Positions 17,628-19,482 of a stretch of 64,000 bases of DNA are shown piece by piece (within the stretch, counting starts at the first letter, position 1; the number at the start of each line of letters is the position of its first letter). Position numbers and translations under genes: made by a program. The notes beneath the pieces are model-generated. The model worked only from the letters and a program-made list of their open reading frames with translations, was not told the origin of the DNA and did not search any database. Source of the stretch: Escherichia coli (GTDB taxonomy: Bacteria > Pseudomonadota > Gammaproteobacteria > Enterobacterales > Enterobacteriaceae). The DNA is taken from NCBI RefSeq assembly GCF_003018255.1, contig NZ_CP027440.1; one strand, given 5' to 3'.

Positions 17628-18530
17628 TCAGAAACTATCATTTAAACGATCTATGAATCGGGAGAAGACAAGGTTGTTCAACGAAGCCTTGTTATAGGAA
17701 ATATAAAGTTTAACCGCAGGAAGAGGTTGTTCTAGTTTTATTTCTTTTAACTTCAAAAAATCACGATGTAAATCGTACAGTTCGGTGGGCACAATGCCTA
17801 ATAAGTCAGTAACAGAAATGCTATTAATTATAGTCAACAAAGAAGAACTGCGAAATGAAACTTTACGGTTTATAAAACGTTCATCTATGTCCATTTGAAT
17901 TTCGTCAATCCCTGCTGATTTAGATATCAACAGGGTGAATTCTTCGGCGATAATTTGTTCATAGTTACTGGTATCAGTAATACGAGGATGTTTGTTGCTA
18001 CATATAAGGGAATTGCGAATAGTGTGTAACGGCATGCAGATGACAGAGCGACTAATTACTGGTTGCAGTGTAATTGCCAGGTCAGTTTTGCGTTGAACCA
18101 ACAGTTCTTCGGCATTTTCAGCTGAAAGCAGGATGTCATGGCATTCTATATCGATTGAAGTATCTTGTCTAAGACAGCGGATTAGCATGTTGTTATTAGT
18201 ACAAGAAATAAGCTGAGGACCGTAGATAATAAAATTTTTCTTTAGTTCAGACTTATTAACGATATTGATCGTTTGTTCAAGGCCTCTGAGATTTTTCTCA
18301 AGATGGTGATGCAGGTTTAACCCTGTTGTAGTCGGCGCGATACCTTTCCCTGAGCGAATGAATAACGGGTCATTAAATTGCGCACGTAAACGTTGTAATG
18401 ACTGACTAACAGCAGAGGGCGTTATATATAATGATTCTGCCGCTTTACTAATGCTGAGATGTTGATAAATACATTCAAATATGACCAGTAAATTGAGGTC
18501 AAATTTTTTTAGATCATAAAGATTAGCCAT
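17628..18530 (-). CDS. ybdO: LysR-family transcriptional regulator
   Basis: 300-aa product from MANLYDLKKFDLNLLVIFE... (HTH, GGAG SD 7 nt upstream); track ORF extends 12 codons upstream; gene is visibly AT-rich. Confidence 0.88.
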   Translation of the reverse strand: MANLYDLKKFDLNLLVIFECIYQHLSISKAAESLYITPSAVSQSLQRLRAQFNDPLFIRSGKGIAPTTTGLNLHHHLEKNLRGLEQTINIVNKSELKKNFIIYGPQLISCTNNNMLIRCLRQDTSIDIECHDILLSAENAEELLVQRKTDLAITLQPVISRSVICMPLHTIRNSLICSNKHPRITDTSNYEQIIAEEFTLLISKSAGIDEIQMDIDERFINRKVSFRSSSLLTIINSISVTDLLGIVPTELYDLHRDFLKLKEIKLEQPLPAVKLYISYNKASLNNLVFSRFIDRLNDSF

Positions 18531-18687
18531 AACATACTCCGTTGTATTGTCTCTTCCATAAATCATTCACTTGATCAATAATGTTTTTTGTATTTATATG
18601 TATTATGTTTTTCTGCTTAACTTTGGATTAAGATTTTCTAAAATAGCATAGCTGTCAGGTGGGTTACGAGCAATTCATGCGTTTTTA

Positions 18688-18723
18688 GGATGGTTGAAAA
18701 GCAAGGATATATTTCAACCATCC
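18688..18723. repeat. Perfect 12-bp inverted repeat with 12-nt spacer downstream of dsbG
   Basis: GGATGGTTGAAA-agcaaggatata-TTTCAACCATCC, 13 nt past the dsbG stop in the dsbG-ybdO spacer; no flanking U-run on either strand. Confidence 0.5.
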
Positions 18724-18735
18724 ATGAATTATCCT

Positions 18736-19482
18736 TTATTTATTCCCCATAATGATATTAAGCATTTTCTGATCGGGTAATCCGACGGCTTGTTGCAGGG
18801 TATTTTCCTTACTCATGTAATAGATAGCTGGTGTGACATTTGCCCCCAGATCGTCCATGAGTTTCTCGTTGTCGCTTAACACTTTCATTTGCTCTGTGCT
18901 TACGTTTGCAGGCACGCTTAGCTTAAGCTTGCCACCAGAGGCTTCATATTGTTGCCAGGTTTTTGCGGGATCTTTGGAGGCAAGAATTGCCGCTGCTGTC
19001 GCCGGGCTTTCTGGCTTGATAACCCCAACCAACAATGTTCTTAATTGCACTTTGCCAGAATCTACCCACGGACGAGCCTGCTGCCAGAATTGTTTACAAT
19101 ATGGGCAGAACGGATCGGCGAAGACGTAGACAATGACCGGCGCATCTTTTTTACCGTCGAGGAGCCAGTGGGATTGTTCCATCCGTTGCCACATTTCACG
19201 TCCGGCGGGTGCGTAAATTTCTTTTTCGATAAGCGTGTTACTCAGGTTTTCACCTTTTTCGTTGTACATGTAACCAGAGATAGCGTGCTTACCATCTGGA
19301 GTCAGGTAGATGGTGACGCCCATATCCTGATACTTACCGAGATAACCTTTCATTCCTCCAGGGGCATCGAACGTTTTGATGATTGTAATACCCTGTTTTT
19401 CAATCGCTTTTACTGGGGCAGGAAGTTCCTCTGCGAAGGCGATTGCAGGAAGCAGAGCCAGTAAAAGTATCTTTTTTAACAT
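18736..19482 (-). CDS. dsbG: Periplasmic disulfide isomerase/chaperone
   Basis: 248-aa product from [17 protein letters not shown] (signal peptide); CPYC thioredoxin motif present; track ORF extends 20 codons upstream. Confidence 0.93.

Follow-up and report, generated by a model that had tools for sequence, protein, structure and literature searches.

The genes dsbG and ybdO (citR) are neighbours on the minus strand of the 64,000-nucleotide stretch of Escherichia coli DNA analysed here (contig NZ_CP027440.1, referred to below as the window), and the intergenic sequence between them carries a perfect inverted repeat, the ybdO promoter and a predicted regulator box (Table 1). The arms of the repeat, GGATGGTTGAAA and TTTCAACCATCC, are 100% complementary to each other over 12 bp and are separated by a 12-nt spacer. 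In the direction of dsbG transcription, the stop codon TAA is followed by 12 nt (18735-18724), the stem begins at the 13th nucleotide past the stop, and 157 nt on the same strand lie between the hairpin and the ybdO ATG. The original prediction, which had described a perfect 12-bp inverted repeat with a 12-nt gap, 13 nt past the dsbG stop, was exact in this geometry, and it was also right that no U-run follows on either strand. The tails beyond the stem, TAAAAACGC on the minus strand and ATGAATTAT on the plus strand, contain no T-run, and a consensus terminator scan called no terminator at the hairpin. As RNA, the minus-strand tail reads UAAAAA(A/C)GC, with 1 U in 9 nt.

The 36-nt hairpin RNA of the minus strand folds with an energy of -16.2 kcal/mol, compared with -4.3 ± 2.2 kcal/mol for shuffled sequences (z = -5.4), and consists of 12 perfect pairs, 5 of which are G-C, closing a loop of 12 nt. 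To estimate how often such a structure would arise by chance, inverted repeats with perfectly paired arms of 12 bp or more and a loop of 3-20 nt were counted in the 64-kb window and in its dinucleotide shuffles. They occurred at two places in the window, against a shuffle mean of 0.095, and thus the repeat downstream of dsbG is not a chance occurrence. The other place, 38693-38722 (AAAAAACCCGCTTCAAAAAGCGGGTTTTTT), looks like a canonical bidirectional intrinsic terminator, since it is built of an A-run, a stem and a T-run. No second copy of the arm or of the hairpin was present within the window. An Rfam scan of 18300-19000, with E-values up to 10, returned chance matches only, the best of which (E = 0.81, a plastid 3′ UTR model) was far under the gathering threshold, and RefSeq has no annotation at the hairpin site in E. 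coli genomes. A possible outer helix, AATTCATG/CATGAATT, pairing 18672-18679 with 18723-18730, also folds in silico. It was not counted as part of the element, because it is broken by E. coli variants, does not occur in Escherichia sp. E1V33 or Citrobacter, and has the mapped 3′ end described below inside its 3′ arm.

In K-12, ybdO transcription starts 107 nt upstream of the ATG (PMC4720273), which corresponds to window position ~18634 when mapped through an alignment of E. coli alleles (A1). The hairpin therefore lies at -54 to -89 from this start, centred at about -71, and the dsbG 3′ end at about -44. No recognisable -35 element accompanies the extended -10 of the promoter, and Escherichia and Citrobacter share the conserved motif GTGCTATTTTAG. 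The predicted CitR (YbdO) box, CTTAA-N7-TTAAG (CTTAACTTTGGATTAAG), comes from phylogenetic footprinting (PMC9068703, supplementary Fig. S2). It is a palindrome distinct from the repeat and lies at the very beginning of the ybdO transcript (+2 to +18), a placement that is consistent with autorepression; ybdO/citR, a gene of the LysR family, has been reported to be autoregulated. The intergenic order is thus the dsbG 3′ end, the extended -10 promoter of ybdO, and the predicted CitR box. The consensus promoter scan also marked a promoter-like site on the plus strand (TTAACT-16-TAAAAT, 18617-18644), which points to the hairpin and overlaps the ybdO start region. RNA from this site would be antisense to the dsbG 3′ end, and it is probably a spurious promoter of the kind common in AT-rich, H-NS-bound DNA.

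Table 1. Features of the dsbG-ybdO intergenic region and the flanking genes, in window positions.
Feature	Position	Strand	Basis
dsbG CDS, 248 aa, stop TAA 18738-18736	18736..19482	-	RefSeq annotation of identical strain
dsbG mRNA 3′ stem-loop (RNA 5′ arm 18723-18712, 3′ arm 18699-18688)	18688..18723	-	Fold, covariation, G·U count
Hairpin loop	18700..18711	-	Variable among E. coli alleles in alignment A1, arms invariant
Window equivalent of K-12 primary dsbG 3′ terminus; dominant position 18678	18678..18686	-	PMC10687069 and counting from stop codon
Outer-helix 3′ half, putative, weakly supported; partner 18723-18730	18672..18679	-	Repeat search and fold
ybdO/citR promoter, extended -10 TGcTATTTT, start ~18634	18640..18648	-	PMC4720273 start and A1 mapping
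Predicted CitR (YbdO) box CTTAA-N7-TTAAG	18616..18632	.	PMC9068703 Fig. S2, matched to sequence
ybdO (citR) CDS, next gene downstream, ATG at 18530	17628..18530	-	RefSeq annotation of identical strain

Of 5426 complete E. coli genomes, 5353 carry the hairpin, with a median of one site each. A search for the same palindrome elsewhere in the genome had been proposed as a check, and no further occurrence came to light, either in these genomes or in the window. The arms are essentially invariant across the 5353 genomes, despite surrounding intergenic DNA that differs by up to 18% between alleles. Indeed, the dsbG-ybdO intergenic region falls into several allele classes that are only ~82% identical, which agrees with the view of Higashi et al. 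2016, who selected ybdO as a gene that was horizontally acquired, is bound by H-NS and diverges fast (PMC4720273). In alignment A1, the arms and ~21 nt on the ybdO side are nearly invariant, and the 12-nt loop varies.

The strict invariance of these ~21 nt within E. coli is a residual oddity of the locus. The block, TAAAAA(A/C)GCATGAATTGCTCG on the minus strand (18666-18687), lies directly 3′ of the hairpin and is the same in all E. coli allele classes, with neighbouring sequence that diverges. Relative to the ybdO start, it spans -33 to -53, and the mapped 3′ end of dsbG falls within it. The constraint on it could come from an UP or -35 region, from a pause or rut signal, or from a regulator site. 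The adjoining spacer between the block and the ybdO -10 (18650-18665) exists in E. coli as two unrelated haplotypes, TAGCTGTCAGGTGGGTTAC and CAGCCACTTAGGGCAGAGC; the possibility that one is an inversion of the other was tested, and it is not.

About 70 complete E. coli genomes are without the hairpin. In one of them, strain LB19b, an IS1A copy (positions 2248-2979 of locus L011) sits directly after, and slightly into, the dsbG 3′ end, and the hairpin, ybdO and part of ybdN have been removed. In strains EC2257 and Ec-042-T20-MAC, ybdO/citR is annotated as frameshifted or truncated, and the upstream hairpin is intact.

For comparison across genera, a DsbG scan with one genome per species yielded 69 loci. 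Nearly all of them had a stable hairpin, with a dG of at most -11 kcal/mol, that started 1-23 nt past the dsbG stop, in Escherichia, Citrobacter, Pseudocitrobacter, Klebsiella, Raoultella, Kosakonia, Pectobacterium and other genera, with a sequence that was wholly different between genera. In two Citrobacter loci (L025 and L026), ybdO is absent and ybdN directly follows dsbG, and the hairpin is kept there as well. Salmonella enterica arizonae and diarizonae have a GC-rich, REP-like palindrome, GCCCGATA..GCTTATCGGGC, at ~35-65 nt past the dsbG stop in place of the Escherichia/Citrobacter-type hairpin, and their dsbG-ybdO spacer is ~110 nt longer.

A set of 26 sequences from Escherichia, Citrobacter and Pseudocitrobacter was aligned with plain MAFFT, without structural guidance (alignment A2). 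From this alignment RNAalifold returned a 9-bp core, in which 7 of the 9 pairs showed compensatory double changes. The covariation score was 0.372, compared with 0.226 ± 0.017 for shuffles, none of which reached 0.372 in 500 trials, and it fell to at most 0.18 when the pairing partners were slid by 1-3 columns. Escherichia sp. E1V33, for example, has arms GGATAACTGAAA/TTTCAGTTATCC, which hold three compensated pairs relative to E. coli. One-sided changes were unequal between the strands, with 11 G·U cells and 1 A·C cell when read as dsbG-sense RNA, although such cell counts overstate the number of independent events because the A2 sequences are related, and we estimate ~7 distinct wobble events, taken as combinations of lineage and position. 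When only the hairpin was folded, the dsbG sense exceeded the antisense in stability by a mean of 1.1 kcal/mol, whereas sense and antisense energies of 75-nt segments gave a mixed outcome, since flanking sequence dominates at that length. The shifts in half-site sequence and the strand asymmetry are each explained by an RNA helix that forms in the dsbG sense, while a DNA operator would conserve its half-sites and would not distinguish the strands. The alignments show selection for pairing in the dsbG-sense RNA, and the hairpin goes with dsbG rather than with the ybdO promoter.

A U-rich run follows the stem in Pectobacterium, Leclercia, Silvania, Enterobacter sp. kpr-6 and Citrobacter youngae, so that in those lineages the structure is a canonical intrinsic terminator. 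In Escherichia, all 14 sequences have at most 3 T among the 9 nt after the stem. The earlier statement that the repeat does not look like a canonical intrinsic terminator therefore holds for Escherichia, where the U-tract is missing, but it does not carry over to the positional counterparts in several other genera.

Mapping of the dsbG mRNA 3′ end had also been named as a check, and a published dataset for K-12 MG1655 supplies it. Bar et al. 2023 list a "Primary" dsbG terminus at NC_000913.3 position 637769 on the minus strand, with a peak at 637769-637777, a signal of 1.0 and a rank of 20 (PMC10687069, Supplementary Data 3; Supplementary Data 2 gives 637770). The fold that these authors report at the terminus is .....(((((((((((..............)))))))))))... 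with -15.2 kcal/mol and a longest U-run of 2, and the 3′ UTR is given as 59 nt in Supplementary Data 4 (PMC10687069). After calibration of the sequence columns on the thrL and thrC terminators of the same table, the dsbG end reads ...CCAUCCUAAAAAAGCA|U, and K-12 position 637769, counted from the stop codon, is window position 18678. Thus the K-12 steady-state dsbG transcript ends 10 nt past the last stem pair and 58 nt past the stop. The mapping rests on the supplementary tables of this one paper (PMC10687069), and our literature search on the dsbG 3′ end found no relevant Term-seq report beyond them. The parts examined of the Term-seq files of Adams et al. 2021 contain neither a dsbG entry nor coordinates of a dsbG 3′ end, and the parts examined of the TERMITe supplement contain no entry for this site.

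Taking the fold, the covariation and the mapped terminus together, we conclude with a probability of roughly 90% that the repeat encodes the 3′-terminal stem-loop of the dsbG mRNA, transcribed from the minus strand of the window. The original prediction had left the choice between a dimeric regulator operator and an RNA processing or stability stem. The RNA stem is what the evidence bears out, through covariation, G·U pairs confined largely to the sense strand, and a 3′ end 10 nt on, and the operator is not, for reasons given below.

As to how the end is formed, the Escherichia stem most likely does not release RNA polymerase on its own, since no U-run follows it. Transcription probably continues into the AT-rich, H-NS-bound ybdO leader, where Rho would end it, and 3′-to-5′ exonucleases (PNPase, RNase II) would then trim the transcript back and halt at the stem. 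The stem would fix a precise 3′ end, shield the dsbG mRNA from decay and mark a boundary just upstream of the silenced ybdO promoter. This course of events is modelled on the findings of Dar and Sorek 2018, who reported that Rho-dependent E. coli transcripts end just past stable stem-loops without U-rich tails, with Rho stopping transcription at scattered points further on and PNPase and RNase II shortening the RNA to the stem (PMC6061677). The dsbG hairpin resembles that class in several respects: the steady-state 3′ end is precise and comes right after a stable stem-loop, this stem-loop has neither an A-tract before it nor a U-rich tail behind it, it is like intrinsic terminators in energy and stem size, and related genera carry a version with a U-run. 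It departs from the class in a loop (12 nt) that is larger than typical and in a downstream C-over-G bias that is only mild, and for dsbG the Rho and trimming steps are deduced by analogy. The same authors predicted that terminator type switches in evolution through gain or loss of U content (PMC6061677), and the presence of a U-run after the stem in some genera and its absence in Escherichia match such a switch. RNase II stalls 5-7 nt before duplexes (PMC10240344), with which the dsbG peak at 2-10 nt past the stem is roughly consistent. We put the complete mechanism, with Rho-dependent termination downstream followed by exonuclease trimming to the stem, at slightly better than even odds. The 80 nt downstream of the stem contain 16 C, 11 G, 33 A and 20 T, which is a mild C-over-G bias in an A-rich sequence with no obvious rut site, and windows beyond these 80 nt show no such bias. 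Our literature search returned no bicyclomycin or rho-mutant result covering the dsbG 3′ site. With a downstream bias this weak and a Rho step deduced by analogy, a weak intrinsic terminator stays a serious rival.

Efficient intrinsic release by E. coli RNA polymerase needs a U-rich tract, and the dsbG tail, with 1 U in 9 nt, does not provide one. It could nevertheless be that the hairpin, perhaps with NusA or NusG, stops the polymerase as a weak or non-canonical intrinsic terminator, in which case the end at +10 would be the true point of termination. A 3′ end 10 nt past the stem is compatible with weak intrinsic release too, and the mapped end is both sharp and near the stem. In addition, an origin from an intrinsic terminator is suggested by the canonical terminators that occupy this position in other genera, and Dar and Sorek considered that sites of this type may be inefficient intrinsic terminators with Rho as a backup (PMC6061677). 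The likeness to a canonical intrinsic terminator extends to the position of the hairpin a few nucleotides past the stop, with the transcript ending just after it, but Escherichia lacks the defining U-rich tract of 7-8 nt directly behind the stem, only 5 of the 12 pairs are G-C, a loop of 12 nt and an upper stem rich in A/U pairs count against it, and the consensus terminator scan was empty. We consider release by the hairpin itself unlikely, though well worth keeping in mind.

A second possibility is that the element has a dual role, in which the RNA ends and protects the dsbG message and the same sequence, as DNA or by terminating transcription, takes part in the silencing of ybdO by H-NS and Rho. 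This idea draws on the unusual invariance of the hairpin and the next 21 nt in a fast-diverging region, on a dsbG 3′ end that falls at -44 relative to the ybdO start, and on an overlap with the H-NS-dependent URE. The URE was mapped to -250 to -176 from the ybdO ATG, and its deletion relieves H-NS repression (PMC4720273); in the window it covers the distal arm and part of the loop. We regard such a double function as improbable. If it were true, dsbG transcription, which is induced by OxyR, could modulate ybdO expression.

In another reading, the repeat acts mainly at the DNA level, as a part of the URE such as a nucleation or bridging site for H-NS. The relief of repression on deletion of the URE speaks for it, yet ~55 bp from the end of the dsbG coding region and AT-rich DNA lie in the URE as well, and the published deletions do not separate the repeat from them. 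H-NS favours AT-rich, curved DNA and not a GGATGG/CCATCC palindrome. A DNA element of this kind would also leave unexplained the covariation and the retention of the hairpin where ybdO is lacking, and we think it very improbable as a main role, and a secondary one at most.

It is hardly credible that the repeat serves as the operator of a dimeric regulator, be it CitR/YbdO, OxyR or some other protein, which would act on the ybdO promoter from a centre at about -71. A site at -54 to -89 is typical of upstream regulators, the invariance of the arms within E. coli amid diverging surroundings would suit a binding site, and a CitR ChIP-exo peak upstream of citR has been reported. The repeat shares with LysR-type operators (T-N11-A; CitR box) a palindromic form and a location ahead of a gene of the LysR family. 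However, it differs from the CitR box in sequence, spacing and location, the box being predicted at the ybdO start, and it differs from LysR-type operators in covarying like RNA and in being independent of the presence of ybdO, as the Citrobacter loci without this gene indicate. Its half-sites are not conserved between genera, and a tolerance of G·U-type changes on one strand only would be meaningless for a DNA site. Moreover, the ybdO promoter fragment L3, which begins at -176 from the ATG and so cuts the repeat in half, is fully active in an hns mutant (PMC4720273). Nothing in these promoter data calls for a protein bound at the repeat. The palindrome is also single-copy in E. coli, and therefore no regulon is defined by it.

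That the palindrome arose by chance or belongs to a dispersed family such as REP/BIME is effectively refuted by its covariation across genera, the shuffle expectation and the single-copy count, and nothing specific speaks for it other than the REP-like palindrome that holds this position in the two Salmonella subspecies. The dsbG repeat does resemble REP/BIME elements, which stabilise upstream mRNA, in being an intergenic palindrome at a gene end that is able to block 3′ exonucleases, but it occurs once, lacks the REP consensus and is A/T-richer. A 3′UTR-derived, Hfq-binding small RNA was also considered and rejected, as the U-tail of a Rho-independent terminator is absent at the dsbG hairpin; our literature search found nothing that links dsbG to a 3′UTR-derived small RNA or to Hfq.

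We believe that the 3′-terminal stem-loop of dsbG is an ordinary mRNA 3′ hairpin, which belongs to the group of U-less protective 3′ stem-loops of E. coli mRNAs. The dsbG 3′ end and its fold are already contained in one supplementary table (PMC10687069), and the element itself has been neither described nor annotated. A function can now be given to a highly conserved palindrome of the dsbG-ybdO/citR interval that had carried no annotation, and it can be struck from the candidate operators; beyond annotation, this has little import. The intergenic layout may help studies of the silencing of ybdO by H-NS. In the wider family, the locus offers a clean example of a 3′ hairpin that is kept across Enterobacterales while the U-run behind it is gained or lost, that is, of the switch between intrinsic and factor-dependent termination proposed by Dar and Sorek 2018.
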